DNA from: Myxococcales bacterium
GTDB taxonomy: Bacteria > Myxococcota > Myxococcia > Myxococcales > 40CM-4-68-19
Length of the DNA: 64,000 bases
Direction: 5' to 3'
Assembly: GCA_036513415.1 (NCBI GenBank)
Contig: DATBZA010000033.1
Span: 5,344-69,343, forward strand
Numbering within the stretch: the stretch's first letter is position 1; every line of letters begins with the position of its first letter. Below, piece by piece: positions 14,734 to 64,000 of the stretch. The position numbers and the translations under genes were made by a program. The notes beneath the pieces were generated by a model. The model was not told the origin of the DNA. It saw only the letters and a program-made list of their open reading frames with translations, and made no database searches.

Positions 14734-14774
14734 ACGATATCTTGTCCGTACAATCTGACGTACGGAGGACAAGT
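14715..14774 (+). promoter_or_regulatory. sigma70-type promoter and inverted repeat of the divergent marR/doxX pair
   Basis: TTGACG(14715)-17 nt-TATCTT(14738); TCCGTAC-N8-GTACGGA repeat reaching into the doxX RBS. Confidence 0.55.
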
Positions 14775-14777
14775 ACC

Positions 14778-15221: not shown

Positions 15222-15244
15222 ACGAGCTGGGGACTCCAGCGCCC

Positions 15245-37273: not shown

Positions 37274-40200
37274 ATGGAGCTCGGGGGTACCGCGAAGCAG
37301 CCGAGCAGGTGCGGTCTCTCGGCCGTGCTGATCAGCACGATTCTCGTCGGCTGCGCCGCGGCGCCCGACGCCAATGTGGACGGTACCGCCCACCGGGCCT
37401 GGTCGCCGCCGCAGCGCCCGCGCCTGACGCTCCCGGCACAGCCCGGCAAAGGCCTGGCAATCAAGGTCGTGTGCCAATCGCAGGTGAGCGGCTCCTGCAG
37501 GGTGTCGACCAATGTCGATGCGTCGCACACGCAAGGGCAGTTGCTCAATGCGGCGGACGCCCTCAAAGCGGTCAATGCGCCTCAGCCCGGCCTACCGCCC
37601 GCGACCGCGCAGGTCTTCTCCTGGGTCTTCGATCGGCCGGTGGACTGGACCGACCTCGAGCAGCCCACGTTGGGAGTCTTCGACACCAACCTCGACAGCG
37701 CGCAGCTTTTCGGCGGCGAGATGGCGAATATGGCCTGGACGTTCTCCGGCTACCTGGCCATCCCGGCGGCGGGCACCAAGTCCTTCGCTGTGGGTTCCCA
37801 GGACGGTTATCTCCTCGCGCTGAATAACGGCACCACGTCCTCGATCAGCCAATACAACGGCAATCGCAGCTTCGCCTATGGCGACACCCTGGGCCTGCCG
37901 CTCACGGTGAGCTTCCCTTCGGCGGGCCTCTACCCGATCTTCCTGCTCGTCTGGAACGACGCCGGTCCCCAGGGGGTCGAGCTGGCCTGGCATGACGGCA
38001 ACGCGCTCATCCTGATTCCGGACGCCAGCACCAAGAACGCGAACGGGTACGCCCTGGTCCCGGCCAGCAGCCTTTACGCCCCGGACATCCGCGCTACCCT
38101 GTTCGTCGACGATCAGACCCGCCCTGCCGGGCCGGTGCTATCCGGCGACACGCTGCAGTGGACGTCGACCGTGCGCAATCAGGGTGTGGTGCCCGCGGCC
38201 GGCGCAAGCTTCAGCGTGGCGACGCCCAAGGCGACCCTGCAAAACCTGACGCTGATCGGCGACGGCGGCACCTGCGCCAGCTCGGCCGACGCAAGCGTGG
38301 ACACGCTGAGCTGCTCGTTGCCTGCCCTCGACCCGGGGGCGGCACAGACGCTGCGCTTCTCCGCCCAGGTGAAGACCGGCCTTGCCGGGGGGACGCCCAT
38401 CGACGTTCAGGGCGTGGTGACGGGTCTCGCGACTGACCCCGCCCTGATCGGTTCCGTGCAAACCGCGCTGAGCGTGGCGGTGAACAACCCCTCCGACCTG
38501 TTCGTGCTCACCGACGACGTCGGCCTGAACGGCTTTGCGACGCTGGACACCGGCAACGCTCCCGTCCTGGCGCTGGGAGCGCCGGGCGCCGCCGACGACG
38601 ATCCGGCGCGCGTGGTGATCGGCGTCGCGCTGCGCCTGCCGGCGACGCCCAGCATCAGCTCGCCCGCGGAAGGGGCCGAGATAGAGGGCCCGCTCCTCGT
38701 GGCTGGGAGCGCCGATCCCGCCTCCACCATCAGTGTCACCATCGACGGCGCCTTCATTGTCCAAACCATGGCGGGGATCGACGGCGCCTTCGCCCTCTCC
38801 ATGCCGCTGTCGGCCGCTGCGGGCAACCACGCGGTTGGGGTGACCGCCTCGGATACCGCGGGCAACCTCAGCTCAACGGCTACGGCGAACTTCCAGTATG
38901 TGGTTGGCGGGCGGGCACGCGGGGGTTGTGCCACCGGCAGCGGCACCGGTCCGCTGTGCCTGCTCCTGTTGGGGCTCTGCGCTGCGCGCAGGCGCCGATC
39001 GTTCGCGGCGCCGCTGGCTGGAGCGGCGTTGATGCTGACCGTGAACGCCGCGAGCGCCGCTGCGCCCGAGGTGAACCTGAGCCTGTTTCGCCCTGCGACC
39101 GGAGGCGACGGCTATGCGGGTGTCGAGGGTGCGCGGCCGCTCGAGTCGGGCGAGCCTCTCGAGGTGCGCTTCTGGCTGGACGGCGCCACGAAAACGCTGC
39201 TGTACCTGCCCGGCGCGGGCGGTGAGCAGACCGTCCTGCGCAATCGGTTGGGCGGCTGGCTGGTCGCGCAGGCGCACCTGTTGGGACCGCTCTCGCTCGC
39301 CGTCCAGATACCCGTGACGCTGAACCAGAGCGGCGACCTCACCAACCTGCCCCCTTCTTCGCGCGGACCCTCCAGCACGCCGGCAGGGCTGAGCGATCTC
39401 CGCCTGACCCCACGGCTCTCGCTTCTCCGCCAGGAGCGGGCCGGCATCGACCTGGCCGCCCAGTTGTCGCTGGAGGTGCCAACGGCGCGAGCCCAGTCGT
39501 TTACCGGCGACGGCCGCGTCGACGGCGAGGCACTGCTGGCGCTGGGGCGCCGCTGGGACGGTCCGGGCCTGTCTGCGATCGAGCTGCTCGGCAATGCGTA
39601 CGCGCGGTTGCGTCCACCGCGCCAGGTGATCGAGGTGAAGACCGGGAACCAGGCCGGCGCGCGCCTGGGGGCGGGCTTCTTCCCCGGGCTGCGGAGCCAG
39701 CTCGTCCCCCATCGCGTGTTCGCCGAGATCGAAGCTCAGACCTTCTTGCGCGCGGGCGGCGCCGCGGGATCAACTCCGGCCGAGTGGCGCGGCGGCGTGG
39801 GCTTTTGCATCGGGCGAGCGGTCGCCTTCGACCTGGCCGCGGGCGGCGCCATCGGCAACGGGATCGGCGCGCCGGTGGCACGCGTCATTACCGCCGTGGG
39901 CTTTTCGCCCCAGAGCTGCGGCGGTGGGGCTCCCCTGTCCGTGGTCGACCGGGACGGCGACGGCATTGCCGACGCCGACGACATCTGCCCCGATCAGCCA
40001 GGGCCGAGGGAGAACAAGGGCTGCCCCCTCGTGGTTGCACGGGAGCAGCCCGCCGGTCCTCCTGCCCCTGCCGTCGCGCCGGCGCCCCCCGAACCGGCGA
40101 AGCTGGCCGAGGCTCCCAAGCCACCCGAGTCGGACCGGGATCACGACGGCGTGCCGGACAAGGAGGATTCTTGCCCCGATCTTCCCGGGACGGCGGCGAA

Positions 40201-40621
40201 TTACGGATGCCCGGTGACGATCAAGCAACTGGTAGTGATCCGAAACGAGCGGATCGAGATCCTCGACAGGATCTATTTCAAGACCGGCAAGGCGATGCTC
40301 GAACGGCGCTCGTTCCCGCTGCTCGATCAGGTCGCGTTCCTGCTCAAAGGCCACGCCGAGTTGCTGACGGTCCAGGTCGAGGGCCATACCGACAACGTCG
40401 GCAGGGCCGCGACGAATCTCGCGCTGTCGCAAGCGCGCGCGAATGCGGTGGTCACGTACCTGGCCAAGACTGGCGTGGATCCGTCGCGGCTGCGCGCCCG
40501 CGGCTTCGGCTCCAACAAGCCCGTCGCGGACAACGCCGCCAGAGCCGGCCGGGAGAGGAATCGGCGCGTCGAGTTCAACGTGATCGGTGTCTCACAGGAG
40601 CCGGCTCGGCCGGGCACCTGA
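37274..40621 (+). CDS. large outer-membrane/surface protein: PA14-like + DUF11-like + Ig-like + internal MYXO-CTERM + beta-barrel + TSP3 + OmpA (TraA/TraB-like fusion)
   Basis: FSGYLAIP..F.VGSQDG; GDTLQWTSTVRNQG; GGCATGSG-TM-RRRR (38921-38998); two DxDxDG..D..D.CP repeats; IYFKTG...VEGHTD...LSQARA...NRRVEF. Confidence 0.85.
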   Translation: MELGGTAKQPSRCGLSAVLISTILVGCAAAPDANVDGTAHRAWSPPQRPRLTLPAQPGKGLAIKVVCQSQVSGSCRVSTNVDASHTQGQLLNAADALKAVNAPQPGLPPATAQVFSWVFDRPVDWTDLEQPTLGVFDTNLDSAQLFGGEMANMAWTFSGYLAIPAAGTKSFAVGSQDGYLLALNNGTTSSISQYNGNRSFAYGDTLGLPLTVSFPSAGLYPIFLLVWNDAGPQGVELAWHDGNALILIPDASTKNANGYALVPASSLYAPDIRATLFVDDQTRPAGPVLSGDTLQWTSTVRNQGVVPAAGASFSVATPKATLQNLTLIGDGGTCASSADASVDTLSCSLPALDPGAAQTLRFSAQVKTGLAGGTPIDVQGVVTGLATDPALIGSVQTALSVAVNNPSDLFVLTDDVGLNGFATLDTGNAPVLALGAPGAADDDPARVVIGVALRLPATPSISSPAEGAEIEGPLLVAGSADPASTISVTIDGAFIVQTMAGIDGAFALSMPLSAAAGNHAVGVTASDTAGNLSSTATANFQYVVGGRARGGCATGSGTGPLCLLLLGLCAARRRRSFAAPLAGAALMLTVNAASAAAPEVNLSLFRPATGGDGYAGVEGARPLESGEPLEVRFWLDGATKTLLYLPGAGGEQTVLRNRLGGWLVAQAHLLGPLSLAVQIPVTLNQSGDLTNLPPSSRGPSSTPAGLSDLRLTPRLSLLRQERAGIDLAAQLSLEVPTARAQSFTGDGRVDGEALLALGRRWDGPGLSAIELLGNAYARLRPPRQVIEVKTGNQAGARLGAGFFPGLRSQLVPHRVFAEIEAQTFLRAGGAAGSTPAEWRGGVGFCIGRAVAFDLAAGGAIGNGIGAPVARVITAVGFSPQSCGGGAPLSVVDRDGDGIADADDICPDQPGPRENKGCPLVVAREQPAGPPAPAVAPAPPEPAKLAEAPKPPESDRDHDGVPDKEDSCPDLPGTAANYGCPVTIKQLVVIRNERIEILDRIYFKTGKAMLERRSFPLLDQVAFLLKGHAELLTVQVEGHTDNVGRAATNLALSQARANAVVTYLAKTGVDPSRLRARGFGSNKPVADNAARAGRERNRRVEFNVIGVSQEPARPGT

Positions 40622-40638
40622 GAGCTGCGAGGTTTCGC

Positions 40639-42528
40639 ATGGGCGAACCGATCGATCCAGGCTATCTGGTGCCGGGGACCAGGATCGGGTTCTACCGGAT
40701 CGTCTCCAGGGTCGCCGCCGGCGGCTTCGGCGTCCTCTACCGCGTCGAGCGGGACGGCCAGAACTATGCGCTCAAGATCGCCACCCACAGGCGGGACGAG
40801 ATCACGCCGGACCAGCTCCGAAATCAGGAGGAGCGCGCCGACCGCGAGCTGGTGGCGCTCAAGTCGCTGGACCATCCCAATATCGTCCGGGTGCACGCTT
40901 TCGAGAGATGGCCGAGCCTGCGGGACGGCTATCCGTTCTTGATCATGGACTTCGTCGAGGGTGACCGGCTCAACGCCTGGGCAGCCAAGGAGCGCCCATC
41001 GCTCGTGACCATCTGCCAGGTCTTCCGCAAGATTGCCCTCGCCCTGCACGAGATGCACCGGATCGACATCTACCATCGCGATTTGAAATCCGACAACTTG
41101 CTGGTCCGGCGCGACGGAGAACCGATCATCGTCGACTTCGGCATCGCCCGGCCGCTGCAGGCCCGCACCGTCACGCGGGACCACACGTTCGTGGGCACCT
41201 CGACGCACCTGCCGCCCGAGTACTGCCAATTCTTCAGCAGCGAGGCGTGCCAACACGGAGAACGCTTCCACTTCACGCCGCAAGGGGACCTGCACGCCGT
41301 GGGCTTCATGCTGTACGAGCTGCTGGCAGGCCGGCCGCCCTTTCCTCCGGCCGAGGATGACGTGGCGATGATGCTGACGATCATCCGCTGCGTGCCCCTC
41401 CCTGCGGCGGAGGTGAACCCGCGAGTGCCCCGCTCACTCGATGCCATCGCCGCGCGGCTCCTGGAAAAGGAGCCTGGGCGCCGGTACGCCGACGGGCAGC
41501 AGCTGGCCGACGCCCTGGAGCTGGCGCTCGCGCAGTCCGATCCGTCGTGGACCCAGCCCCACGCGGTCCCTCCGCCGCCAGGGCGGGATCGGCCCACGCG
41601 CGGCGACCGCTCGGGCGGCGCCCGGGCGCTGCCGTCGCGAGCCCGCGATGCCGGCTTCGCACCTTTGGTCTCTACCGGCGCAGCCACGCTCGAGTCGCGC
41701 TTGGTCAACGCGATCGCCGAAACCATGAGAGAGACGGGCGCGGACATCAAACCGCCGCATTCGGCCACCGCCCTCAGCGTCGAGATCGTGCGGCGCGTCG
41801 AAGTCCCTACACGTGCTGCGCAGGAACGGCTGCCACCACGCGCCAAGCGCTCGATCATGATCGTGGGCGGCGCGTGCGCGTTGCTCGCGCTCTCGACTGT
41901 GATCCGCGCGTCACCCGGTGTTCGCTTCGGGCGTTGGCCCGGCGCTTTGCCGCCGGCCGCGCTACAGGCGGCGCCGCTGCCGCCGGCTCCTGAGCAAGAG
42001 CTGCTTCGGTCCCGCGCTACCGATCTGGAATTGCCAACTCCGTCGACGTCGCTGAGCTCCACAACGCCGGCGGCCGTGCGAGTCCGAGAGGCCGGGAACC
42101 GCACCCACGTCGCGAATCCCGACTTCGGGATTAGCTCCGCAGCGTCAGCGGCCACCGAGGTCACCGAAGGGCACTCGCTCGGAGTTCCCGCAGGCGCCGA
42201 GTTGGCTGTGAGATTGCTGAGCAGCCTCGACGACCATGCCCTGGCCGGAGCTTCGGTGGAGGCCCTGCTGATCCGCCGGGTGAAGGGTCACAAGCGCCGT
42301 TCGCTCCCCGCAGGAACCATCCTCTACGGGGTGGCGACCCAGAACGGTGGGCGCTTCGTTCTGCGTTTCAAGCGCGCCAAGCTGCCTGACGAGACGCAAT
42401 TCGAGATCGACGGTCTCGCCTACGACGCGAGCGGCACGCACGGAATTGCTCCGACCAGGCTGAAAGCGGGTATCGCCGTGCTCGCCGCCGGCGAAGAATT
42501 CGTCGTGCTGATCCCGCAGGGTTTCTAA
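40639..42528 (+). CDS. Ser/Thr protein kinase with TM and C-terminal TrbI/VirB10-like domain
   Basis: GGFG, ALK, HRDLKSDN, DFG, PPE; TM IMIVGGACALLAL; VPAGAEL..LPAGTILYG..GLAYD..G..GI. Confidence 0.85.
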   Translation: MGEPIDPGYLVPGTRIGFYRIVSRVAAGGFGVLYRVERDGQNYALKIATHRRDEITPDQLRNQEERADRELVALKSLDHPNIVRVHAFERWPSLRDGYPFLIMDFVEGDRLNAWAAKERPSLVTICQVFRKIALALHEMHRIDIYHRDLKSDNLLVRRDGEPIIVDFGIARPLQARTVTRDHTFVGTSTHLPPEYCQFFSSEACQHGERFHFTPQGDLHAVGFMLYELLAGRPPFPPAEDDVAMMLTIIRCVPLPAAEVNPRVPRSLDAIAARLLEKEPGRRYADGQQLADALELALAQSDPSWTQPHAVPPPPGRDRPTRGDRSGGARALPSRARDAGFAPLVSTGAATLESRLVNAIAETMRETGADIKPPHSATALSVEIVRRVEVPTRAAQERLPPRAKRSIMIVGGACALLALSTVIRASPGVRFGRWPGALPPAALQAAPLPPAPEQELLRSRATDLELPTPSTSLSSTTPAAVRVREAGNRTHVANPDFGISSAASAATEVTEGHSLGVPAGAELAVRLLSSLDDHALAGASVEALLIRRVKGHKRRSLPAGTILYGVATQNGGRFVLRFKRAKLPDETQFEIDGLAYDASGTHGIAPTRLKAGIAVLAAGEEFVVLIPQGF

Positions 42529-51983: not shown

Positions 51984-52804
51984 TCAGTCAGGAGCGAGGC
52001 GTTGAATCGTCGAAGCCCGCTTGCGTAGCGACGTCACGGCAATGACGACGATCATTGCGGCCGCGATCACGAGCGAAGAGATGATCCGGCCGAGGCCCAG
52101 CCCACCCTCGGCAGACGACTTGGTGAGCGTGTCGCCGAGCGTCGCCCCGAGGGGTCGCGTTAGAACGTAGGCGGCCCAGAAGAGCACGGTGTCTGGGAGG
52201 CTCGTGAAGTAGTGGGCGAGGGCCACGAGCGCGATCAGGCCCGCGAACACCAGTGCTCCGCGCTCGAAGCCTAACTTGGTCGTCGTGGCGACGAAATCGC
52301 CCAGCGCGGTGCCGAGCGTGTTCGACACCAGGATAGTGACCCATAGAAGACTTCGTCCTTTCGCGCAGTGATTCGGTCGACCCTGATAGCGCCCGTCGCG
52401 TAGCGCCAGGCGGCCAGCAGCGCGATCACCAGACACAAGAGGATGATCGAGGACTTTACGTAGCCGAGCCCGAGGGTGCGGTCGAAATAGTCGGAGGTCG
52501 TCGTACCGACCGTCGTCGTGGCCACCACGACCGCCCAGTAGAAGGCCGGGTGGTAATGCCTGGACTTGACCTGGGCGAACAGGGTGCACAGAAACAACGC
52601 GAGAAAGATCAGGGTGCTCTCGGCGTACCCGAGCTTCAGAGTCATCGACAGCGCGTCACCACCGGTCTCGCCGAGCGTTGTCGCGAGAATCTTGACGACC
52701 CAGAACGCAAACGTGACCCGCGGAACCTTGCTGAGAGGACCGGCTTCGTCGGCGGCCGGGTAAGCTCGGGAGCCTTCATCTCTGATCATCTTGGGCAGCA
52801 CCAT
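51984..52804 (-). pseudogene. DUF347-repeat membrane protein split by a 1-nt frameshift (or sequencing error)
   Basis: Repeated FW...TT.GET.GD / TRPLGATLGD units; one added base near 52343 restores EVFYWVTILVSNTLGTALGD. Confidence 0.8.
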
Positions 52805-52871
52805 GGCCGGGAAGGTTAGCAACGGGGCCCGATGCAGGCACCGCTTTCCTATGGCACGCTCGTGCCCCTGA

Positions 52872-53228
52872 CTAGGTTCCGCCCGTCGAGCTCGTCCGTG
52901 CCGCAAAGGCGTCGAGCGTACGCGCCGAGTACACCAATGCCGCGCCTGCATTGACCGAGATGGCGACACCTAGCGCCTCGATCAGCTCTTCCTTCGTCGC
53001 GCCGTGGCGGACGGCCGCATCGACATGAGTGACGATGCAGCCGTCGCAGCGCGCCGTCACCGCCACGGCCAGCGAGATCAATTCGCGGACCTTCGGATCG
53101 AGCTTGCCGATCTTCGCTGCGCCGTCGGCAATCGTGCGGTAACCGCGCACGATATCGGGAGATGCCTGGCCGATCTGCTGGATCGTGGCGATCAACTGCT
53201 TCCGATACTCCTCCCAATCCATCATCAT
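52872..53228 (-). CDS. carboxymuconolactone decarboxylase/AhpD family protein
   Basis: LDPKVRELISLAVAVTARCDGCIVTH...GATKEEL.EA. Confidence 0.92.
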   Translation of the reverse strand: MMMDWEEYRKQLIATIQQIGQASPDIVRGYRTIADGAAKIGKLDPKVRELISLAVAVTARCDGCIVTHVDAAVRHGATKEELIEALGVAISVNAGAALVYSARTLDAFAARTSSTGGT

Positions 53229-53432: not shown

Positions 53433-53481
53433 TGGTGCCCAGGGGCGGAATCGAACCACCGACACGGGGATTTTCAGTCCC
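53433..53481 (-). repeat. duplicated 3' half of tRNA-Phe(GAA), island attachment site
   Basis: Reverse strand GGGACTGAAAATCCCCGTGTCGGTGGTTCGATTCCGCCCCTGGGCACCA: anticodon loop, T-arm and CCA, but no D-arm or 5' half; first 12 nt repeated at 63989-64000. Confidence 0.9.
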
Positions 53482-53634: not shown

Positions 53635-54126
53635 ATGGATGCCCCCAAGCAGGCCAACGACTGGGAGGCAACGGCGGAGACGCTGGTCGCTCTGGGCGCT
53701 CCGCTGAGCGGCTGGAGACCGAACCGGCGCCTCGCTCCGGAGGCAGCTCTTGCCTTCGCGCTCCGTTTCGCGAGCACTGATGCTTCCCTCCTGCGCTCGC
53801 TTCCTGTCGTGCTGGCTCGGACGTGGCGAGAGCTCGACTGGAGCAAGCTGGAAAACAGCGCGCGGGCTCAGGACTCGCTGGCACTCCTCGGAATGCTGAC
53901 GGAACTGACGGCATCGCTCGCCGGCCTCACGGAACTCGGCGAGAAGGCGCGACAGTGGTGGCACCCGCCGCGCGAGACGCGTCACCTCTTCCGCCCCAGA
54001 AACGACTTCGACAGGGAGCTCGCCGAGCATCGAACGCCGCCGGTGGCCAGGAGATGGGGGTTCCTCATGAACATGGGAGAGGATTCTTTCCGGGCCCTCT
54101 ACGAACGGCATGCCGGCCAAGTTTGA
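53635..54126 (+). CDS. hypothetical protein, putative partner of the downstream nucleotidyltransferase
   Basis: Helical ORF overlapping the start of the nucleotidyltransferase-like fragment. Confidence 0.6.
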   Translation: MDAPKQANDWEATAETLVALGAPLSGWRPNRRLAPEAALAFALRFASTDASLLRSLPVVLARTWRELDWSKLENSARAQDSLALLGMLTELTASLAGLTELGEKARQWWHPPRETRHLFRPRNDFDRELAEHRTPPVARRWGFLMNMGEDSFRALYERHAGQV

Positions 54127-54245
54127 AGCCTCGGCACTCTTCGAGTTCCTCGGACGCGTCGATCGCGAGCTGGCAGCTCGCTCCATCATCTTCCTGATCG
54201 GCGGAAGCGCGGTTTCGATCATTGACCCCGCGCACTCGACCAGCG
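54110..54245 (+). pseudogene. N-terminal fragment of a nucleotidyltransferase (DUF6036-like)
   Basis: FLGRVDREL...IFLIGGSAVSI...TS then breaks before the DxD motif and runs antisense into the helicase gene. Confidence 0.55.
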
Positions 54246-54271: not shown

Positions 54272-57067
54272 CTAGCCTGCCACCCGGATCGCGGGCGCCG
54301 CGGGGACCAGCCGCGACCGCGCATTCCTCTTGAGGTGCGACTCATGCCACGCCAGGTTCATCACCTGGTGGAGCGACACCCAGGCATCGGCGCCGCCCGC
54401 GCGCGCAACCCGCAAGCAGAGCGACGGGTTGGGCACGTAGTGCCCGCGCGCTTCGCGGATCCATAGCTGCCGGTTCGGCACGTATGCGCTACCCGGCTCG
54501 TTGCGGGCGAGCAGGCCGTTGACGTAGAGGCGCCGCTTTCGCGCCGGCTTGATCACCACCTCGGGAAAGACCGCGAACGGCTCGCGGAGGAAGAAATCGC
54601 TCGTCACCCCTTCGCTGCGACCGGCACAGAACTGATAGAGCTCGTCGAACCGGGCGAGGAACGTGGAGAAGAAGAAGAACTCGCCCATCTCCCGGCCGAT
54701 CTGGAGCAGGCGCCCCGACGCCTCGACGTCGAAGGAGGCCGGGGCGACCAGGTCGAAAACGGTCCCGAAGACGGTGGTGGCATACGTGGAGTCGCGATAG
54801 GCCCGGCGCAGCGCCCAGTGCAGCGCCGCGCGGCCGGCGTGATCGCGCGCCTCGAGGCTCGCGCCGCGCCCGAGCAGCGCCTCGACCAGCGGCACGTTGC
54901 CGGCGAAGGCGGCGAGCATCAGCGGCGTGAGCCCCTGCGGACTGGCGTAATCGACGCCGTATTGCTCGGTCCGCGCGAGCACCTCCTTGAAGTTCTTCCC
55001 CTCGAAGCCCTCGAGAGCGCGCCGGGCGATCCGCGCGCGCTGCGCCTCGTATTGCGTCGCGGGCTCGAACCGGCCCTCCCCGGCAAGACGATCGGCGACC
55101 AGCTTCTCTTCGTGGAAACAGGCCAGCTCGTAGAGCTGCTGTTTGGCCTTGTTCGACACGCTCGCAGGCGCCAGCGCCTTGTCGGCGAGCGCGCGCAGAT
55201 TGGCGTCGTGGAATACCGTCCAGGGGACGGGCCGGAGCCTCAGCACCTGCTCGCGGATGGCCTCGGCCTGCTCCTGCTTGCCCTGAGTCTCGAGCCGGTG
55301 CGCCTCGCGCTGCCACTCCTCGGCCGAGGATTTCTCTGCCTGTACCGAGGCGGCGCTCTCCGGCCGACCGACGCCGAGCAACTCGAGCAACGGATGCCTG
55401 ACATCGTCTTCCACCAGGATCACCTGCCCGACCGCGCGGGTAAGCGCCACATAGAGCGCATTGACGAAAAACTTGTACAGCTCGAGCGACCGATCGCTCT
55501 TGTCCTTCGCCCGGCGATACTCGAGCCGATCGCCGGCCAGGTCGTGCGCCTCGACCCCCTCGCACAGCTCGGCGAAAAGCCGCCGCTCGGCGGAGAGGAG
55601 GCGGTAGACGATCACGGTTTCGTACTCGAGTCCCTTCGCCTCGTGAATGCTGAAGACGAGCGGCGTGCGCAGCTGCCTGCGCGCGTCCGCCTTGTGCTCG
55701 TCGCGCAGGACGATGACGGCCACCTTCGTCGACTGGCGTGTCTTGTCGTTCAGTTCCTTCACCGCCGCACTCGCGGTCGGGAAAGCGGTCACTGAGCCTT
55801 CGACGCCGGCGAGCGGCCGCATCAAGAGATTCGACTCCCGGTCGATGGAGCCGAATTTCGCGTGCTTGAGCCGCAGCACCCGGTTGGCCACCTGCGTGAC
55901 TGCGTCGCTGTTGCGGTAACTGACGTCGAGCAGGTGCACGTCGGTCTCGTGCGTCTCGCCCAAGCCACGCCAGAAGAGGCTCTTCACCTTGGACCAGGAG
56001 AAGAAGTTCGGGTGGACGATCTGGTTGGCATCGCCCGCGACGACGAATTGCCCCGGAGTCTTGAGCGATCGGAGCACGAGCGAAAGCTGCACGTTGGTGA
56101 GGTCCTGCACCTCGTCGACCACGACGAAGTCGTAGGCCGGCTCAATCCTGCTGAGCCATGAATGGGCCACCAGGTTCGGCTCGTAGAGGTTCTCCCCGGC
56201 GAGCCAGGCCCGGTAGCGTTCGAAGAAGTCGAACAGGATCGCTCGCTGCTCTGCGTCGAACATCGACTGACGCACGCCGAGGCCGAGGTACGGCTCGCGG
56301 GAGAGCGGCCCCTCGGGCTCGGCGGTGAGCACCCCGCGTAGCTCCTCGAAAACCTGGTGGGCGTCGGCGAACCTGATCTTCTGGGGATACCGCTCGAAGA
56401 ACCCGCCGAAGTCGCGGAACGTGACCGGCCGCCCTTCGGGCACGCCCACCGTCTCGAGCAGCTGGCGGTAGCTGAGGAAGTCGGCCTCCTGATCGTCCGG
56501 CGCGCCGTCGAAAGCGACGTAGAGCGCGCGCGAGGTCTCGGCGAGCCACTTCGATTCGGTGACGTAGGCGACGCGCCCGGGAACATGCCGGAGCCGCTGC
56601 AGGAGCAGTGCAGTCTTGCCGCTTCCCGCCGAGCCCACCAACACCAGCGGGGCTCTCTGGCGAAGCGCCGCGTCCTGCAGGTCATCGAAGGAGAGCGGCT
56701 TGTCGAGGTAGTGGAAGACGGAGCGGGTGGGATGGAGATAGCGCAAGGGCCGCGCCTCAAATGCCTGCGGCGGCTCCGGATGCTCAAGCTTCGTCTCGTC
56801 GACCGGCGCGCCGCGCAGGAAGCGCGAGCGGTCGTACGCGTGCCCGCGGACCACCTCGAGCGCGAGGCAAGCCTTCTCCCCGTGAACCTCGGCGAACTGG
56901 AGGAGAAGCCGCGAGGCATCGTCGAGCTTGGCCCGGTAGAACGCGCCCACGCCCAGCTTCTTCACGTCGGGGGAACGGAAGTCGTCCCGCTCGATGGCCG
57001 CGCGTACCTTTTCGACCCTGTCGGTGAGGTCGCCGGGCGCGAGGCCGTGGTAGGTGAGAAAGCGCAC
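54272..57067 (-). CDS. UvrD-like SF1 helicase with ankyrin repeats
   Basis: GSAGSGKT, VVDEVQD, GDANQ, YRN, SIHEAKGLE, LYVALTRA; GLTPLMLAAFAGNVPLVEALLGRGA ankyrin; start GTG 57067 (ORF open from 57184). Confidence 0.88.
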   Translation of the reverse strand: MRFLTYHGLAPGDLTDRVEKVRAAIERDDFRSPDVKKLGVGAFYRAKLDDASRLLLQFAEVHGEKACLALEVVRGHAYDRSRFLRGAPVDETKLEHPEPPQAFEARPLRYLHPTRSVFHYLDKPLSFDDLQDAALRQRAPLVLVGSAGSGKTALLLQRLRHVPGRVAYVTESKWLAETSRALYVAFDGAPDDQEADFLSYRQLLETVGVPEGRPVTFRDFGGFFERYPQKIRFADAHQVFEELRGVLTAEPEGPLSREPYLGLGVRQSMFDAEQRAILFDFFERYRAWLAGENLYEPNLVAHSWLSRIEPAYDFVVVDEVQDLTNVQLSLVLRSLKTPGQFVVAGDANQIVHPNFFSWSKVKSLFWRGLGETHETDVHLLDVSYRNSDAVTQVANRVLRLKHAKFGSIDRESNLLMRPLAGVEGSVTAFPTASAAVKELNDKTRQSTKVAVIVLRDEHKADARRQLRTPLVFSIHEAKGLEYETVIVYRLLSAERRLFAELCEGVEAHDLAGDRLEYRRAKDKSDRSLELYKFFVNALYVALTRAVGQVILVEDDVRHPLLELLGVGRPESAASVQAEKSSAEEWQREAHRLETQGKQEQAEAIREQVLRLRPVPWTVFHDANLRALADKALAPASVSNKAKQQLYELACFHEEKLVADRLAGEGRFEPATQYEAQRARIARRALEGFEGKNFKEVLARTEQYGVDYASPQGLTPLMLAAFAGNVPLVEALLGRGASLEARDHAGRAALHWALRRAYRDSTYATTVFGTVFDLVAPASFDVEASGRLLQIGREMGEFFFFSTFLARFDELYQFCAGRSEGVTSDFFLREPFAVFPEVVIKPARKRRLYVNGLLARNEPGSAYVPNRQLWIREARGHYVPNPSLCLRVARAGGADAWVSLHQVMNLAWHESHLKRNARSRLVPAAPAIRVAG

Positions 57068-57229
57068 CAGACGCCCAGGTACCACAGAGCAGATCCGCGT
57101 ACCATCGGTCCGATGACCGTAGAGAATCGCGTCGAGGAGAGAGTCCGACGCGCCACCCAGGTCGCGCTCCTCCGCCCGAGGCACGCCACCGAGATCGACC
57201 TCCTGCTCGGGAATCCGGGCGTGTACCGC

Positions 57230-57556
57230 TCACCGACCCAGGCCTGGGAGCTTGGTCAGGCAAGGAATCCACGCAGGCGACAAGGCGTCATCTCCGTTCT
57301 GACGGTGGTGCTGCCGTCGAGGTGCCGCGAAGCACGGTCGGCGATATCGAAGCGACCGCTGCGCCCACGCAGCCTCAAGGATCTCGCCCAGTTCGGGAAC
57401 CCGGCGCCCAGCCCGAGGCATCCGAGCCGCTGCGCGAGCTCGCTTGCGGAGCATCGCGACCCATCTGCGCGCTGCCTCGGGATTGTCTCGGGAGACGGAT
57501 CGCGCGATTTCGAGTAGTTCGTTCTGGGCTCTCAGGGTCCAGCGAAGCCTGCTCAT
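57230..57556 (-). pseudogene. RelE/ParE family toxin, C-terminally truncated
   Basis: LRWTLRAQNELLEI....DNPEAA.RW...MPRAGRRVPELG; resemblance lapses near 57385. Confidence 0.7.
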
Positions 57557-57745
57557 CGCTTGCGCTTGCCGAGCTCACGTTCCACCACCTCGTCCAGATC
57601 CCGGTCGGAGACGACGCGTCCCGCCTCGGCATCGGCGAGCCCTTCTCGGACGGCCTCGCGGAAACGTTCACGGTAAGTGAGGCGGTCGAACTCCTCCGGT
57701 GAGAGCAGCACCGCGGCGGGCCGGCCGTTCTGGGTGATGATCGCG
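57553..57745 (-). pseudogene. Phd/YefM antitoxin, N-terminally truncated
   Basis: IITQNGRPAAVLLSPEEFD...REGLADAEAGRVVS; no own start codon, abuts the SWIM gene stop; ATGA overlap with the toxin. Confidence 0.75.
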
Positions 57746-58483
57746 TTACCGTCCGCTGCGGCGCGGCCTCCGATCCAGTTCGATCCCGAAAATTCCCTCC
57801 AGGGAGCCCGTGTCGAGAGCCTCCTTCGCTCGCGGGGCGCGGCGGAGCGCGCTTCTTGCAACCAGCTCCTCGAGGGCCACGCTGCGCAGCGTGAAGAACA
57901 GCTCGGGCTTCTTGTCGAGCCGCGCGCCGACTGCGTAGAGCACTGCCGCGATGTGCTTGCAGAGCAAGGCGAAGTCGGGGCACGAGCAGGTGAAGTCGAT
58001 CTCCTTCGGCGCTGGAAAGAGCCCCGCGCGCCGGTCGACCAGCGCTTCCAGCACCGTCTCGGACAACTTTCCCTGAAGAAGGCCGACCACGGAGTCGATG
58101 CGTCCCGCACAGCGCTTGATCACCGCTCCCCAGCGCTTGCCGGCGAGCTTGTCGATCCGCACCGACACCTCGTAGAGCGAGCTGCCGGCCACCAGCGCGT
58201 CGATCTGCCCGGCGCCGAGCCGCAGATCGACCACTGCCCCGCTGCGCACGTACGTGCGGCCGCGGGGAAGCCGGTTGCTGAAGTCCATGTATGACTCGAG
58301 GTTCTTGCACCACTCCTTGCCCCAGAACGAGCTGGCGATGCGCTGCCCCTCCAACCTCACCGGTTCCAGCACGCGGCCACGCTTCTCCAGCTTCCTTGCC
58401 TGCAAGAGCGCCTTGGCGCGGCGCTCTCCGACCGAGACGTACCTGGGGAATCCGCCGTAGCCGTCGAAATCGTAATCAGCCAT
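57746..58483 (-). CDS. SWIM zinc-finger protein
   Basis: NRLPRGRTYVR, CSCPD...CKHIAAVLY, PELFFTLR. Confidence 0.92.
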   Translation of the reverse strand: MADYDFDGYGGFPRYVSVGERRAKALLQARKLEKRGRVLEPVRLEGQRIASSFWGKEWCKNLESYMDFSNRLPRGRTYVRSGAVVDLRLGAGQIDALVAGSSLYEVSVRIDKLAGKRWGAVIKRCAGRIDSVVGLLQGKLSETVLEALVDRRAGLFPAPKEIDFTCSCPDFALLCKHIAAVLYAVGARLDKKPELFFTLRSVALEELVARSALRRAPRAKEALDTGSLEGIFGIELDRRPRRSGR

Positions 58484-58495
58484 CGCCCTTCCTGG

Positions 58496-61135
58496 TCAGG
58501 CCGCGTCGTCGAGCGCGCGGTCGAGATCGATGGAAACCGTTCGCAATAGATCAGCGTCGCTCATCTCCGTCAAATGCGCCTCGGCGCCGCCTTCGAGCAG
58601 CTCGCCCGCCAGGGCCCGTTTCTCGGCCAGCATGGCGTCGATCTTCTCCTCCACCGTGCCGCGGCAGACGAACTTGTGCACCAGCACGTTCCGCTTCTGG
58701 CCGATGCGGAAGGCGCGATCGGTGGCCTGCTCCTCGACGGCAGGGTTCCACCAGCGGTCGAAGTGGACGACGTGCGAGGCGGCAGTGAGATTGAGGCCCG
58801 TGCCACCCGCCTTGAGCGAAAGCACGAAAAAGGGCGCCTCGCCGGCCTGGAAGCTCTCTACCAGCGCCGCCCGCGCGCGCACCTTGGTCTCGCCGTGCAG
58901 AACGAGGCCGGGCGCGCCGAACACCTGCTCGAGAAACGCCGCCAGCGGCTCAGTCAGCTCGCGGAACTGCGTGAAGACCAGCACCTTCTCCTGACGCGCG
59001 GCAATCTCCTCGCAGAGCGCCGAGAGCCGCGCGAACTTGCCGCTGGCTTCGGGGACATAGTCTCCGTCGCGCAGCCACTGCGACGGATGGTTGCAGATTT
59101 GTTTGAGCCGGATCAACGAGGCCAGCACCAGCCCGCGCCGCTTCATCCCGTCGGCGCCCTTGAGCGACTGGGTCAGCTCCTCGACGGTCTTCTGGTAGAG
59201 GGCCGCCTGCTTCCTGGTCAGGGCGCAGAATGCGGTCATCTCCGTCTTGTCGGGCAGATCGCGGATCACGTTCTTGTCGGTCTTGAGCCGGCGCAGGAGA
59301 TACGGCCGCGTCAACTCGCGTAGCGGGCCATATCCTCGATTCTCCAGTTTCTTGATGAACCTCCCGAATGCCTGGGCCGACCCGAGCAAGCCGGGGTTGA
59401 GGAAGTCGAAGATCGACCACAGATCGAGAGGCCGGTTCTCGACCGGAGTGCCGGTCAGCGCGATCCGCACGCGCGCCTTCAGCTCCTTGACGGCGCGGGT
59501 CTGGCGCGCACCGGGATTCTTGATGGCCTGCGCCTCATCGAGGACGGCCACGTCCCAGTCGGCGGATGCGAGCGCGGGCTTGCGCAGCAGCATGCCGTAC
59601 GTCGTGATGATCAGATCTGCATCTTCTGCCTGTTCCTCATGCGCCGATGGATGCTCCACCCGGATGCGCAGCGTCGGCGCAAACCGCGCGATCTCCGCGC
59701 TCCAGTTTCCCAGAAGCGACGCCGGCGCGACCAGCAAGCTTGGGCCTGGGGCCTGTCCCGCTTTCTTGCGCGCCAAGAGGAACGCAAGGACCTGCAATGT
59801 CTTGCCGAGACCCATGTCGTCCGCCAGGCACGTCCCGAGGCCCAGCCCGGCGGCGAAGGAGAGCCATCGCACGCCGACCTCCTGGTACGGCCGCAGCTCG
59901 GCGCGCAGCTCGGAGCCGGGAAGGAGCTTTCCCAATGCGTCCGGGCTGCGCAGGCCGGCGAGGGCCTGTGCGAGCCAAGGGCCGGCGCTGACGCGCGACC
60001 AGTCGGCCACGTCCGGTTCCAGCGGCGCCGCCGCTTCGCCCTCGGCTCCAGCCAGCAACCGCATCGCCTCGAGGAGAGAGAGCCCACCGCCGCGAGCCGC
60101 GCGCTGCGCCTCCTTCCAGTGTGCGAGGACCTGCTCGAGCTTGTCCCGATCGATCTCCACCCAGCGTCCGCGAACCAGCGCGAGCCCATGGTCCTGCGCC
60201 GCCAGCGCCCTCCATTCCTTCTCGCTCAATGGCTCGCCGTCGAGGGCGAGTCGGACATCGAAATCGACGAGCGCATCGAGCCCCAGCCTGGCCGGCTTGC
60301 GCCCGCCCAGCTTCACTTCGACACCCACGCGAGAGCGCTTCTTCCACCAGTCAGGAACGCGGACGACGATGCCCGCTGCCTCGAAGGCGGGCACCTCGCG
60401 CAGGAAACGGAGCGCCTCGGCGGGTGTCCAGGCCAGGGTGCGGAACAACTTCCCGTTGTCCACCAACTCCTTGGCCAGCGCGCTCTCCTCCGAAGCGCGC
60501 TGCACGGGCAGCAGGAGGGCGAGGAGGGCGCCCTTGTCAGAGGCGAAGTCGCGCACGGCCTGGCCGAGCGGCCGGTGCTGCGGCTGGGCCCTGCTCGACA
60601 AGCGCGTCGTATAGGTGGCGAGAAACGCGAAGGGCCGTTCCTCGTCGGCCTTGTTCTCGGCGAGATGGAAGCAGACGCGACCGACCACGTTCCAGGCGGC
60701 GTGACGGTCCTTGAACCACTGATCGAGCGAGGTGTCTCGCAGCTCGCTGCGCAGGGCGGCGTCCAGATCGCTCCAGAGCGCTTCAAGCGTCGCGGGGCGC
60801 AGGTATTCGCCGCCGGACATCGGCGGTACCTGCGAGACCAGCCGAGCCAGCTCGTCTGGCGGCGCTTGGTTACTGGCGGCCTCGGGAGCGGCGCACGCGC
60901 GGGCGAGAAAGAGCGCGCCCATGTCGCGGAAGAAGGCCACGCTCGGCGGCAAGCTCTCGCCAGGGTGGCGCGCCGCGAGTTGGAGGATGGCGAAGCCAGG
61001 CCCGTGGGCGAGGTTGGACGTAAGCTCGCGCGCCAGGGCGGCCGGCGCGCAGCCTTCGAGCGAAGGCCTCGCGTCAAGGTGCACTGCGCCCGAGGGCGAG
61101 ATCGCGAGCGCGAGCGGGATCAGGTCTTCGGCCAC
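58496..61135 (-). CDS. SNF2-family (SF2) helicase/ATPase
   Basis: LRPYQ, LADDMGLGKT, DEAQ, TGTP.EN, LRRLK, GGTGLNL, WWNPAVE.QATDRAFRIGQ. Confidence 0.95.
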   Translation of the reverse strand: MAEDLIPLALAISPSGAVHLDARPSLEGCAPAALARELTSNLAHGPGFAILQLAARHPGESLPPSVAFFRDMGALFLARACAAPEAASNQAPPDELARLVSQVPPMSGGEYLRPATLEALWSDLDAALRSELRDTSLDQWFKDRHAAWNVVGRVCFHLAENKADEERPFAFLATYTTRLSSRAQPQHRPLGQAVRDFASDKGALLALLLPVQRASEESALAKELVDNGKLFRTLAWTPAEALRFLREVPAFEAAGIVVRVPDWWKKRSRVGVEVKLGGRKPARLGLDALVDFDVRLALDGEPLSEKEWRALAAQDHGLALVRGRWVEIDRDKLEQVLAHWKEAQRAARGGGLSLLEAMRLLAGAEGEAAAPLEPDVADWSRVSAGPWLAQALAGLRSPDALGKLLPGSELRAELRPYQEVGVRWLSFAAGLGLGTCLADDMGLGKTLQVLAFLLARKKAGQAPGPSLLVAPASLLGNWSAEIARFAPTLRIRVEHPSAHEEQAEDADLIITTYGMLLRKPALASADWDVAVLDEAQAIKNPGARQTRAVKELKARVRIALTGTPVENRPLDLWSIFDFLNPGLLGSAQAFGRFIKKLENRGYGPLRELTRPYLLRRLKTDKNVIRDLPDKTEMTAFCALTRKQAALYQKTVEELTQSLKGADGMKRRGLVLASLIRLKQICNHPSQWLRDGDYVPEASGKFARLSALCEEIAARQEKVLVFTQFRELTEPLAAFLEQVFGAPGLVLHGETKVRARAALVESFQAGEAPFFVLSLKAGGTGLNLTAASHVVHFDRWWNPAVEEQATDRAFRIGQKRNVLVHKFVCRGTVEEKIDAMLAEKRALAGELLEGGAEAHLTEMSDADLLRTVSIDLDRALDDAA

Positions 61136-61162: not shown

Positions 61163-61816
61163 ATGAAGGAACTGGTCGTCATCTCTCCGCTGAGCGATTG
61201 GACCTGCCGCGAGTGCCAGGGGAGCGGGGACCTGCTCGTGATGGAGGGGCCAGGACCGCTCTGCCTCGCCTGCGCGGAGCTGGACCATCTCGTCTTCCTC
61301 GGCCGTGGCGACGCCGCGCTCACGCGCCGGGCCAAGTCGGCGAGCAGGCTTTGGGCGGTGGTGATCCGCTTCAGCCGATCCCGCAAGCGATACGAGCGGC
61401 AGGGCCTTCTGGTCGAGGAGCATGCGCTGAAGAAAGCGGAGGCGGAATGCCTGGCGGACGCCGAGCTGCGCGCGCAGCACAAGGCGCGCGATGCCGAACG
61501 CCGGGCCGATCAGGACGAGGCGCTGGCGCGGTCGATGGCCGAGGGCATCCGGAGGCTCTTTCCGCGCTGCCCGCCGGAAGAGGCGGAGGCCATCGCGCGG
61601 CATGCGACGCTGCGGAGAAGCGGCCGGGTCGGAAGGACTGCGGCGGCGAAGGAGATGGAAGAGCGACCCTTGGTCCTCGCGGTCGTTGCCGCCGTCCGTC
61701 ATGGGTGCACGCGATATGACGATCTGTTGATGAGCGGAATGGAGCGGAGCGAAGCGCGCGCGGGCGTGCGGGACGAGGTAGAGCGAATCCTGGCTGACTG
61801 GCGCGGCGGAGACTGA
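61163..61816 (+). CDS. DUF2293 domain protein with N-terminal CxxC..CxxC
   Basis: CREC...CLAC, GDAALTRRA, YERQG, LFPRCP, SGRVGRTAA, AVRH..TRYD.L. Confidence 0.85.
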   Translation: MKELVVISPLSDWTCRECQGSGDLLVMEGPGPLCLACAELDHLVFLGRGDAALTRRAKSASRLWAVVIRFSRSRKRYERQGLLVEEHALKKAEAECLADAELRAQHKARDAERRADQDEALARSMAEGIRRLFPRCPPEEAEAIARHATLRRSGRVGRTAAAKEMEERPLVLAVVAAVRHGCTRYDDLLMSGMERSEARAGVRDEVERILADWRGGD

Positions 61817-62060
61817 ATCAACCGCGCACGCTGCCGAGTCGTTCCTGCCGAATCTGGGATTCCCCCGTCCCCTAGCGCAGTCACCATCATCGAGATCGCG
61901 AGCGACGAGCCGCGGCGACCGCGCAGACCGTGCTTCCGGGAAGCACGCCCGAAGCACGGTCGTCGACACTAAAGCGATTCTCACCTCGTCATATCGGATG
62001 GTGCGAGGCGTGCCGGCCAGACCGTGGACGCACAGATTGCTTGCGTTCGGGGGGGACGAT

Positions 62061-63503
62061 ATGCGGAACGGTTGGGGCGGGGTGGGGCGCAAGCGCGGAC
62101 TCGGGCTGGTTGTCGGAACCACGACAATCTGGATGATCGCCGCGTGTGGTGGTTCGCCCACCGGCAGCACCTCGGGGGCGACTCCCGCCGGTCAGGAGCA
62201 GTCGCCGGCGTCCCCAGGACCTACGCCTCCACCGGCGCCCGTCCCCGTTCCCGCGCCTCCGGTCGCGGCGCTCTGCGCGGACGATTGCCGCGCCTCCGTC
62301 GACGAGGTCATCGCGGGGACTGCCGCGACCCGCAACCTCGAATCGCTCGGGTTCGTCCTCGATCAGGGCGGTTCGCCGCATGTGGTTTCACCGGCGGACG
62401 CAGGCAACTGTGCCGCTGGTAACCCCGCAATCGAAGCCGTTCGCGGTGGGTCGGGATGGAGTCTTTCCGTCCGGCCATGGGATCTCGGCGTGGCCCTCGC
62501 TCGCTCCCGTTCGACCCTCGGCTTGTTGACGGACGGCAACTCGCTGCGCTTCTGGCTGTCGACAGGTAATTCCGGATGGGAGAACGTCGAGGCTCCGCCC
62601 ATTGGCGCCGCCTGGCGCAGCACGCTCACGGGCGATTCTTCAGGTCGCTTTCATCTCATAGGGGCCGTGGTGGGCAGCGACGTTCCCGTCTATGCGGTCC
62701 GCGACGGAACTTGGAGGATTTCGCCGCTCGCACTGTCAACCGAGGAAAGCGGCGCACTGACACCGTTCTCGTTCTTACTCTCGATGGCCTTGACCGTCGA
62801 CGCTTCAAACGACGCGCACGTCGCGTATTGGTTCCAGGGCAAGGACAACGCCGTCAACACGCTTTGTGTCGGCACTCCTCTCGGTACGCGCATGGCGGCG
62901 ATGACGGGGCGCTCGTTGTCGAATCAGGCGGGCATCGCGCTTGCGGTGGCCAGCGACTCGGGCGTCGACGTTTCGCACGTTCTCGCGGTCCGGTTGAGCG
63001 GGCCGAACGCGGACCCGATCCTCGGGCCACAAGAGCTTGTCTACGCGACCGACCGCGGAGGAGCATGGACTTCCGCGGTGGTAGCGACGGGATCGGCGCA
63101 GTCGCATTGCGTCTATGCCGCAGACGGCACCCAGACGTGCCAGATGGATGAGCTGAACCTGTTCCCAATCGCCGTCGTCACGAGAGGCTCCGACGTGCGC
63201 CTCCTCTATACGACCGACCATCTCACCGGCACGGTGATCACTGGTTGCCACGGAGCCGTGTGCGGAACCTCGGGTGGAACGAGGACCCAGGACTTGATGA
63301 TCGGGTGGGTTGCGGACGGACAAGTCCACACGCGGCGGATCGCTGCTGGGTTCGTACACTCTCCCGGCGATGCCTTCTCCGGTCGCATGCGGCCATATGC
63401 GCACGTGCAACTCGACCACGAGGGCCGCATCCACATCGTTGGAGAACAAACGGTCGCGGGCGTGAGCTGCGGTTCGCTGCTTCGATACGTCGTCATCGAT
63501 TGA
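62061..63503 (+). CDS. putative lipoprotein with beta-rich repeats
   Basis: IAAC lipobox, Pro-rich linker, repeated D..G..H(V/I) units. Confidence 0.7.
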   Translation: MRNGWGGVGRKRGLGLVVGTTTIWMIAACGGSPTGSTSGATPAGQEQSPASPGPTPPPAPVPVPAPPVAALCADDCRASVDEVIAGTAATRNLESLGFVLDQGGSPHVVSPADAGNCAAGNPAIEAVRGGSGWSLSVRPWDLGVALARSRSTLGLLTDGNSLRFWLSTGNSGWENVEAPPIGAAWRSTLTGDSSGRFHLIGAVVGSDVPVYAVRDGTWRISPLALSTEESGALTPFSFLLSMALTVDASNDAHVAYWFQGKDNAVNTLCVGTPLGTRMAAMTGRSLSNQAGIALAVASDSGVDVSHVLAVRLSGPNADPILGPQELVYATDRGGAWTSAVVATGSAQSHCVYAADGTQTCQMDELNLFPIAVVTRGSDVRLLYTTDHLTGTVITGCHGAVCGTSGGTRTQDLMIGWVADGQVHTRRIAAGFVHSPGDAFSGRMRPYAHVQLDHEGRIHIVGEQTVAGVSCGSLLRYVVID

Positions 63504-63690: not shown

Positions 63691-64000
63691 GGCTGCAGGC
63701 GCGCCGGCATCGACCGCTGCTCGCCGAACGACCTGCGCCGCACCTACGGCCGCTGGATGCGCATCGCCGCCTTCCCCGACGAGATCATCGCGCCGACGAT
63801 GGGCCACGCCGACACCCGCATGCTGGAACGGGTCTACGGCAAGCTCTCCCCCGAAGAGCTCAGTCGGCGCCTGCTCTTGCACGCGCGCGCGGCCCTTCCG
63901 GACTGCATCGCTAATGCATCAGTTGGAACCGAAATCGACGGAATTTCCAGACAGGCTGGACTTGCTCGAACCGCTAAGTCTGCGCGATTGGTGCCCAGGG
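63691..64000 (+). pseudogene. C-terminal remnant of a tyrosine recombinase/integrase
   Basis: Frame absent from the ORF track: CRRAGIDRCSPNDLRRTYGRW...MGHADTRMLERVYGKL; open to the window end through the att core. Confidence 0.8.
63989..64000 (-). tRNA. probable 3' end of intact tRNA-Phe (rest lies beyond the window)
   Basis: Reverse strand CCCTGGGCACCA identical to the 3' end of the fragment at 53433; only 12 nt visible. Confidence 0.55.

Follow-up and report, generated by a model that had tools for sequence, protein, structure and literature searches.

The window analysed here is a stretch of 64,000 nucleotides from a Myxococcales bacterium (GenBank assembly GCA_036513415.1, contig DATBZA010000033.1, positions 5,344 to 69,343 of the forward strand). 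It holds an intact gene whose product is predicted to join an N-terminal RelE/YoeB-fold domain to a superfamily 1 (SF1) helicase core, followed by a helical segment, a short ankyrin region, and a C-terminal α/β domain (Table 1). A first-pass annotation made from the letters of the sequence had singled out this gene as a candidate single-gene defence system. The gene is a single open frame on the minus strand, with its stop codon at 54272. The first GTG of the frame, at 57184, would yield a protein of 970 aa. In 116 of 121 aligned proteins (the query and its best 120 homologs), fewer than 10 residues precede the start that matches the GTG at 57067, so that the likely product has 931 aa.

The gene is under purifying selection and is more than a chance frame: by a simple codon-counting method, the ratio of nonsynonymous to synonymous substitution rates (dN/dS) against three relatives is 0.14–0.17 overall and at most 0.31 in every domain. 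No promoter-like site was found at the gene, terminator counts are the same as in shuffled sequences, and no RNA holder is listed for it. An AlphaFold2 model of the whole protein, built from a 48-sequence alignment, has a mean predicted local distance difference test score (pLDDT) of 89 and a predicted template modelling score of 0.90. Pfam recognizes UvrD-helicase (E 1e-9), UvrD_C_2, and Ank in the 931-aa protein, with no match in its first 130 or last 170 residues.

The N-terminal domain, modelled alone, has a pLDDT of 91. Foldseek with this model gives a best E of 9e-4, and RelE-superfamily toxins of toxin–antitoxin (TA) modules make up 39 of the 40 rows shown. In VIA-align, YoeB ranks first (7v5y, Z 9.0, rmsd (root-mean-square deviation) 2.3, 75 aligned residues), RelE, YafQ, and HigB come next, and the CRISPR-linked RelE fusion Cami1 is found at Z 6.7. 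The sequence leads are weak: four of the 76 members match the Pfam family ParE_like, none better than E 0.025, and Atlas gives a neighbour with a score of 0.82. A profile of the domain found nothing significant among PDB sequences, so that the RelE call rests on the structure model; judged by that model, the assignment of the N-terminus to the RelE/ParE superfamily appears good.

Conservation was assessed in 81 aligned proteins, comprising the query and representatives less than 50% identical to each other. Near-invariant positions in the domain are K37 (kept in 78), R45 (75), K/R47, R53 (78), E71, H76 (78), Y78 (77), and an S-R-F motif, and its dN/dS is 0.11–0.31. Going by alignment ranges, model residues 75–77, and with them H76, fall at the chain ends of YoeB (83–84) and HigB (92), where these toxins carry their catalytic His/Tyr. 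Together with the model, these features suggest that the domain may be an RNase. In RelE itself, the active-site arginines are R61 and R81, according to the part of PMC3482391 at hand. Among 120 of the 437 short proteins that match the domain, all align to the full-length profile, 90 of them to within 10 residues of their own end and 30 with short unaligned tails; these look like truncated copies and not free toxins.

All SF1 motifs are found in the helicase core: Walker A (GSAGSGKT, residues 145–152), Walker B (DEVQD, 318–322), GDANQ (345–349), YRN (384–386), EAKGLE (476–481), and YVALTRA (539–545). The Walker A lysine is kept in 79 and the Walker B Asp-Glu in 81 of the 81 aligned proteins. 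Foldseek and VIA-align group residues ~126–570 with PcrA, UvrD, Rep (1uaa, Z 24.5), and HelD (Z 21.1). That Rep and HelD are the best structural matches of the core speaks for an accessory nucleic-acid maintenance enzyme, active in quality control of RNA or ribosomes, in the removal of R-loops, or in the recycling of RNA polymerase; its RelE-fold domain would dock on or trim RNA and be non-toxic. The high conservation and the tolerated expression of a Shigella homolog, Orf182, described below, fit the same explanation. We regard it as somewhat unlikely: several UvrD/PcrA-type genes and a HelD-like one are present in the genome as it is, a minority presence in each lineage on islands and plasmids is untypical of maintenance genes, and one of six Escherichia coli copies is a pseudogene. 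The protein does not score as the housekeeping PcrA, reaching 28 bits with the NCBIfam PcrA model, whose cut-off is 911; on PF00580, PcrA-like genes of the same genome reach up to 291 bits.

A search with residues 120–570 among proteins longer than 1,630 aa returned 16 matches: 14 come from plants or fungi, two of these being named 'TPR and ankyrin repeat-containing protein 1', and the other two are ankyrin proteins of bacterial type. The core of the family aligns with that of these TRANK1-like proteins at an hhalign E of 3e-43 over 456 columns. With the helicase profile of the family, the 14 TRANK1-like proteins score 114–136 bits and ArmD, a subunit of the ARMADA defence system, 61 bits; proteins of the UvrD/PcrA type do not exceed 52. 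Conversely, a TRANK1-like profile run against 17,017 six-frame frames of the genome gives 74 bits for this gene and 15 for the next best. Trees place the family and the TRANK1-like proteins on one side with Shimodaira–Hasegawa-like approximate likelihood ratio (SH-aLRT) values of 99 and 91 in quick runs and 99/99 in a careful run of 25 rows, and the family and ArmD stand apart in them. Selecting the eukaryotic rows for their similarity to the query favours this result, a long-branch warning applies, ArmD and HelD are represented by one row each, and the careful tree omits nine rows for speed and P0281, which has no usable core. In an approximately unbiased test, a grouping of the family with ArmD is not rejected (p 0.07), the single ArmD row lying on a long branch. 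By sequence, the helicase core is nearer to the TRANK1-like proteins of plants and fungi than it is to UvrD or ArmD.

The TRANK1-like proteins share the helicase subtype and differ in being 1,703–3,168 aa long, with a second, Upf1-type helicase region (PF13086/PF13087), whereas the protein described here has 931 aa and one helicase. That the closest eukaryotic relatives also carry Upf1-type domains is a further point for a maintenance enzyme. No RelE domain was detected by hhalign ahead of the helicase in the TRANK1-like proteins; one had seemed plausible by eye and was rejected on this result. More distant bacterial RelE-helicase-ankyrin proteins of 1,644–1,837 aa also exist (P0280 and P0281), and P0280 branches between the family and the TRANK1-like proteins. 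A broader idea, which we consider rather doubtful, is that the family is the bacterial sister group of TRANK1-type helicases and a stand-alone antiviral system, making up an immune module common to domains of life. If true, Orf182 would be an anti-phage gene kept on a virulence plasmid, and the ancestry of TRANK1-type proteins would lie in a conflict system of bacteria. The tie between the helicases gives access from the bacterial side to a eukaryotic family that is poorly understood.

The helical segment behind the helicase has no family match. PDB ankyrin matches span residues 691–761. Long ankyrin arrays are confined to more distant subfamilies (P0221, P0232, P0242, and P0281), and two family members (P0133 and P0138) carry a C-terminal DUF1186 with a SEC-C motif. 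The C-terminal part thus varies across the family while the RelE-helicase core is retained. For the C-terminal domain, there is no usable Atlas match, and a 70-sequence alignment gave no significant match to PDB sequences or Pfam. A comparison with HARE-HTH (PF05066) reaches an hhalign probability of 2%, over the wing strand only and from a shallow 24-sequence alignment. Fold searches with the whole model were filled by helicase matches and say nothing on the fold of this domain.

The layout given in the first-pass annotation is upheld, with some qualifications. The gene is intact, both quoted N-terminal peptides are present in the translation, the N-terminus is RelE-like on the predicted model, the SF1 motifs are complete on a Rep-like fold, DSSP on the model places a helical segment at residues 571–690, and the C-terminal domain is without a known family. 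The ankyrin repeats exist as described; at only about two in this subfamily (residues ~703–757), they would make a thin sensor. The likeness to TRANK1 pointed out there holds for the helicase domain and for TRANK1-like proteins from plants and fungi; the matches included no animal TRANK1.

A member of the family has been met before, as Orf182 of the Shigella virulence plasmids pWR100/pWR501. The pWR501 copy (WP_010921718.1; 970 aa, 111 kDa, GC 50.9%) is 41% identical over 920 columns covering all domains and retains the conserved RelE residues; its size, mass, and GC match orf182 of Pinaud et al. 2017 as given in the part of PMC5658099 at hand. The gene named 'orf186' is a different one. Orf182 differs from the present gene in its virulence-plasmid location next to shf-virK, and the same text describes it only by its ankyrin domain and non-secretion and gives no function. 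There, Orf182 is detected by mass spectrometry, is more than 98% conserved across Shigella species, and as a fusion is well expressed from the lac promoter on a low-copy plasmid; it is neither secreted nor translocated and serves as a negative control. The word 'toxic' is absent from the text at hand, and no growth assay for Orf182 is seen in it. As far as this text goes, it shows that full-length Orf182 is tolerated in the cell.

Ankyrin proteins of Shigella, Wolbachia, and Piscirickettsia are often host-directed secreted effectors, and the Shigella copy lies near ospG and ipaH9.8, with further copies in a Wolbachia endosymbiont and on Piscirickettsia plasmids. For Orf182, the secretion and translocation result, seen in part in PMC5658099, largely refutes such a role, and most homologs come from free-living soil and water bacteria; for the family, we consider a secreted effector highly improbable.

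The explanation we favour is a self-restrained, single-protein abortive defence: once triggered, the protein would release its RelE domain, which would then halt translation. In our judgement, this explanation has an even chance of being right. The full-length protein would be held inactive in cis. Such restraint is suggested by the conserved RelE-type domain, which has no antitoxin gene and is tolerated in the full-length protein; Orf182, which keeps the RelE residues and yet is well expressed and stays in the cell, fits it as well. The helicase, with its intact motifs, would be the obvious switch: it may load on single strands of nucleic acid that become exposed when a phage or plasmid replicates, and hydrolyse ATP. 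The ankyrin repeats and C-terminal part could tune what is sensed, and this variable part is likely a specificity module. YoeB and RelE cut mRNA on the ribosome. A freed RelE domain might do the same, leading to growth arrest and an aborted infection.

The distribution of the family is consistent with this explanation. A first homolog search scored 7,998 candidates and found 4,694 proteins with E ≤0.001; the top 120 of them are 57–90% identical to the query. In a collection with one genome per species, at least 594 loci were confirmed. The 80 loci kept from these belong to Pseudomonadota (47), Myxococcota (15), and Chlorobiota (12), among others, and comprise 70 full open frames, seven cut by a contig end, and three shorter ones. 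The gene was found in 4 of 200 other genomes of the phylum, one of the four being a C-terminal fragment (in G196), and in 2 of 18 congeners. Counting the centre genome in each case, it is present in 6 of 61 genomes of a genus draw centred on Cupriavidus and in 11 of 81 Chlorobiaceae. E. coli has it in 116 of 5,426 genomes, with 107 of 117 places chromosomal. These counts come from samples that include incomplete genomes, and the remainder are genomes in which it was not found among those searched. On plasmids, 131 records hold the family, 101 of them from Shigella. The family is large and patchy and sits on islands and plasmids, and we count this mobile, patchy spread, typical of defence genes, as support for the abortive-defence explanation.

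A subfamily in Wolbachia (P0259/P0271, P0240, and P0242) keeps the RelE-helicase core, with a 270-residue N-terminal extension in P0271, and its cluster also includes one record whose label assigns it to a spider. For ants, PMC13320244 reports uvrD genes that derive from Wolbachia.

Genomic neighbourhoods were analysed with genes called by our own gene finder, which was checked against one annotated locus. It called 821 genes in 85 loci, which fall into 661 clusters (a count from its first version). No recurring partner gene is found among them, nor a RelBE-type cognate antitoxin gene, and the genes upstream vary between loci. In agreement with this, the stand-alone character proposed earlier is supported by the lack of a partner and by the patchy, mobile occurrence. 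A Pfam scan covered 300 of 369 called neighbours at 40 loci, and, for comparison, 146 genes in 20 control regions picked arbitrarily from these genomes, at a common threshold of E 1e-8; at this threshold, L021 (RelE, E 9e-8) and L064 (a homologous pair) are not counted as TA, and L040, which lacks a full-length frame, is left out.

TA genes occur at 10 of the 40 loci and in 1 of the 20 controls (p 0.08). TA or restriction-modification genes together occur at 12 and 1 (p 0.04). These differences are overstated by kinship among loci and by controls from long contigs. At the annotated plasmid loci, TA genes lie within 10 kb in five of six. TA modules are the commonest special neighbours and, with the retention of the gene on the virulence plasmid in 101 Shigella records and its survival intact among decaying island genes, they suggest a one-protein addiction or stress module, that is, a self-neutralised RelE-type toxin that would stabilise an island or plasmid or induce dormancy without sensing phage. 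We judge this unlikely. It is hard to see how a toxin fused to its inhibitor would bring about post-segregational killing, and an ATPase of 450 residues seems more than addiction would call for. TA genes also collect at any integration hot spot, so that co-location need not mean shared function.

Several further neighbourhoods deserve mention. Two hosts that are not related have an RF-1-domain gene (ArfB-like, ribosome rescue; L010:10754-11113 and L017:12249-12668) one or two genes downstream; this adjacency, at 2 of 40 loci, is of interest for a RelE-type nuclease and possibly due to chance. Together with the housekeeping surroundings at many loci, it also speaks for the maintenance enzyme considered above. 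In Azotobacter (L018 and L023), the gene stands between glmU and a DeoR-glmS pair, with a protein of at least 900 aa that belongs to no Pfam family. The copies at six E. coli loci (L091–L096) come after a small module of the inovirus-Gp2/AlpA/YagK type inside adhesin, contact-dependent inhibition, or insertion sequence (IS)-rich islands; these six loci lie in IS-rich or Gp2/AlpA-type islands. One Piscirickettsia plasmid copy (L097) sits among DruA, a pair of genes for a SIR2-family and an ATP-binding protein (14244-16985), and two TA modules, which form a small defence cluster and speak for the abortive-defence explanation.

A number of results weigh against abortive defence. Recognisable anti-phage systems lie within about five genes at only 2 of the 40 loci (L036 and L046), compared with 0 of 20 controls (p 0.55), so that the defence-island enrichment proposed as a check in the first-pass annotation is weak. 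PADLOC was given 106 test and 29 control proteins, most of them picked because they were Pfam-negative or suspicious. It bears out only L036 (Mza/MORC-methyltransferase type) and L046 (type IIG restriction); generic matches are scattered over seven further test loci, and the controls have none. No classical anti-phage system is annotated at the six E. coli chromosomal loci. Housekeeping contexts, which that annotation had named as a sign to the contrary, are found for several homologs (L010, L017, and L081 among them), and others sit in mobile contexts. The gene is mobile cargo that accompanies TA modules and does not clearly belong to defence islands. The full protein is spanned by no model of PADLOC or NCBIfam, the best partial matches being GajB (35 bits) and HelD (30 bits), and 50,697 phage records hold no match. 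For an arms-race gene, conservation is high, with 41% identity between this genome and Shigella and a dN/dS of ~0.15. The RNase branch is less certain, since the RelE/ParE fold also includes gyrase inhibitors, and ParE-type inhibitors score Z 7.0–7.4, no more than 2 units below YoeB. The tolerance of Orf182 is explained equally well by an inactive or non-toxic domain. Lastly, ARMADA, which of the tested systems with a RelE-helicase is the nearest, is reported as non-abortive in the part of bioRxiv 10.1101/2025.09.15.676423 at hand.

Table 1. Features of the gene and its island (positions in the window).
Feature	Position	Strand	Basis or remark
Intact gene, 931 aa	54272..57067	-	RelE-fold domain, SF1 helicase, helical segment, ~2 ankyrin repeats, C-terminal alpha/beta domain
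Predicted RelE/YoeB-fold domain, residues 1 to ~88	56804..57067	-	own model, Foldseek, VIA-align, conservation
SF1 UvrD/Rep-fold helicase core, residues ~120-570, TRANK1-like subtype	55358..56710	-	Pfam, VIA-align, hhalign
Helical segment, residues 571-690	54998..55357	-	DSSP on model; no family match
~2 ankyrin repeats, residues 703-757	54797..54961	-	Pfam Ank and Ank_2 above cut-off
C-terminal alpha/beta domain, residues 761-905, conserved Arg/Tyr	54353..54787	-	model; winged-helix-like by eye only
tRNA-Phe 3' copy (att-like)	53433..53481	-	49/49 bp identical to the genome's tRNA-Phe
163-aa gene	53635..54126	+	no Pfam match; paired with DUF6036 gene here and in L006
DUF6036 nucleotidyltransferase remnant	54110..54245	+	tblastn; DNA match to L006 stops at ~54245
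ParE-type toxin remnant	57230..57556	-	model positions 1-60 of 89
Phd/YefM antitoxin remnant without N-terminus	57553..57760	-	Pfam model positions 20-69 of 74
SWIM zinc-finger gene and SNF2 helicase gene (DUF3670 type)	57746..61135	-	open frames, island cargo
DUF2293 gene, open frame	61163..61816	+	
Tyrosine integrase fragment	63694..63906	+	adjoins second repeat
Second tRNA-Phe 3' copy, 46 bp, 96%	63989..64000, on to 64033 past window edge	-	

The gene lies in a segment of ~10.5 kb enclosed by the two tRNA-Phe 3' copies (Table 1). The tRNA island described earlier is accordingly present as two repeats flanking the gene; ARAGORN finds no whole tRNA in the window, and the complete tRNA-Phe sits on another contig (C32). 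The copies mark a hot spot at which integration has taken place repeatedly. Pairs of orphan tRNA-Phe 3' ends, each with an integrase tail, are also present in several congeners (G189:C46, G245:C236, and G240:C273). GC scarcely differs between the island (0.673) and its flank (0.658). Of the broken genes said to surround the helicase gene, those for DUF6036, ParE, Phd, and the integrase are indeed broken, while the SWIM, SNF2, and DUF2293 frames are open. Comparison with a 91%-identical locus (L006), which holds an intact 186-aa DUF6036 gene and a counterpart 92% identical to the 163-aa protein, shows that a deletion took most of the DUF6036 gene and ended at the stop codon of the helicase gene.

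Neither set of neighbours is a fixed partner: the SWIM-SNF2 genes occur without this gene in several congeners and on another contig in G240, and the pair of DUF6036 and 163-aa genes was rejected in view of the lack of recurring neighbours across loci. Also inside the island is an open frame for a lipoprotein-like protein of 501 aa (61998-63503) with no Pfam or NCBIfam match. Elsewhere in the window, a DUF347 repeat membrane gene is split across two overlapping frames (51984-52969), and our gene finder calls a frame of 1,115 codons next to a kinase-like frame of 619 codons (37274-42525).

In the literature searched, which left out subscription papers and supplements, there is no functional account of the family beyond the secretion test of Orf182, and the parts of PMC3710099 and PMC4229854 at hand hold nothing on it. 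The proposed mechanism would give a testable function to Orf182, a large, conserved virulence-plasmid gene left unexplained in the part of PMC5658099 at hand, and to the island-borne copies in ~2% of complete E. coli genomes.

Compared with YoeB, RelE, YafQ, HigB, and Cami1, residues 1–88 have the same predicted fold (Z 6.6–9.0), with conserved basic residues and a C-terminal His/Tyr, at an identity of 5–21%; here the domain is fused to a helicase and has no separate antitoxin gene. Gabija GajB is likewise a UvrD-like ATPase of a defence system and gives the best PADLOC matches, at 35 bits and in motif regions only. It is without RelE, ankyrin, or C-terminal domains, and no GajA OLD nuclease partner is found at the island of the window or as a recurring neighbour.

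The defence explanation has precedents in ArmD of ARMADA II and in a RelE-helicase of Tiamat type I-K loci, as far as the parts of the two preprints at hand go (bioRxiv 10.1101/2025.09.15.676423 and bioRxiv 10.64898/2026.09.30.754977). According to the former (Bell et al.), ArmD carries an N-terminal RelE-like domain on a UvrD-family helicase, occurs in tRNA-integrated islands, and is needed for anti-phage defence, with protection lost in a Walker A mutant. It differs in being the fourth gene of a strict operon and in having 704 aa, without ankyrin or C-terminal domain; its identity to the present protein is 25%, in the helicase only, and the N-terminal profile does not match it. The BrxHII-like helicase, PglX-like methyltransferase, and YprA helicase of the ARMADA II operon, given in the same part of the preprint, are absent here: the island has no methyltransferase or YprA gene, and no neighbours are conserved. 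Since the operon features of ARMADA and Gabija are not found, the protein is not a member of either system. By analogy, the family probably resembles the RelE-helicase subunits of known defence systems in its way of working. RelE-helicase fusions have so far been described as subunits of multi-gene systems, and a version encoded by one gene, with a repeat tail that varies, would provide a compact model for a toxin held in cis and released by a helicase.

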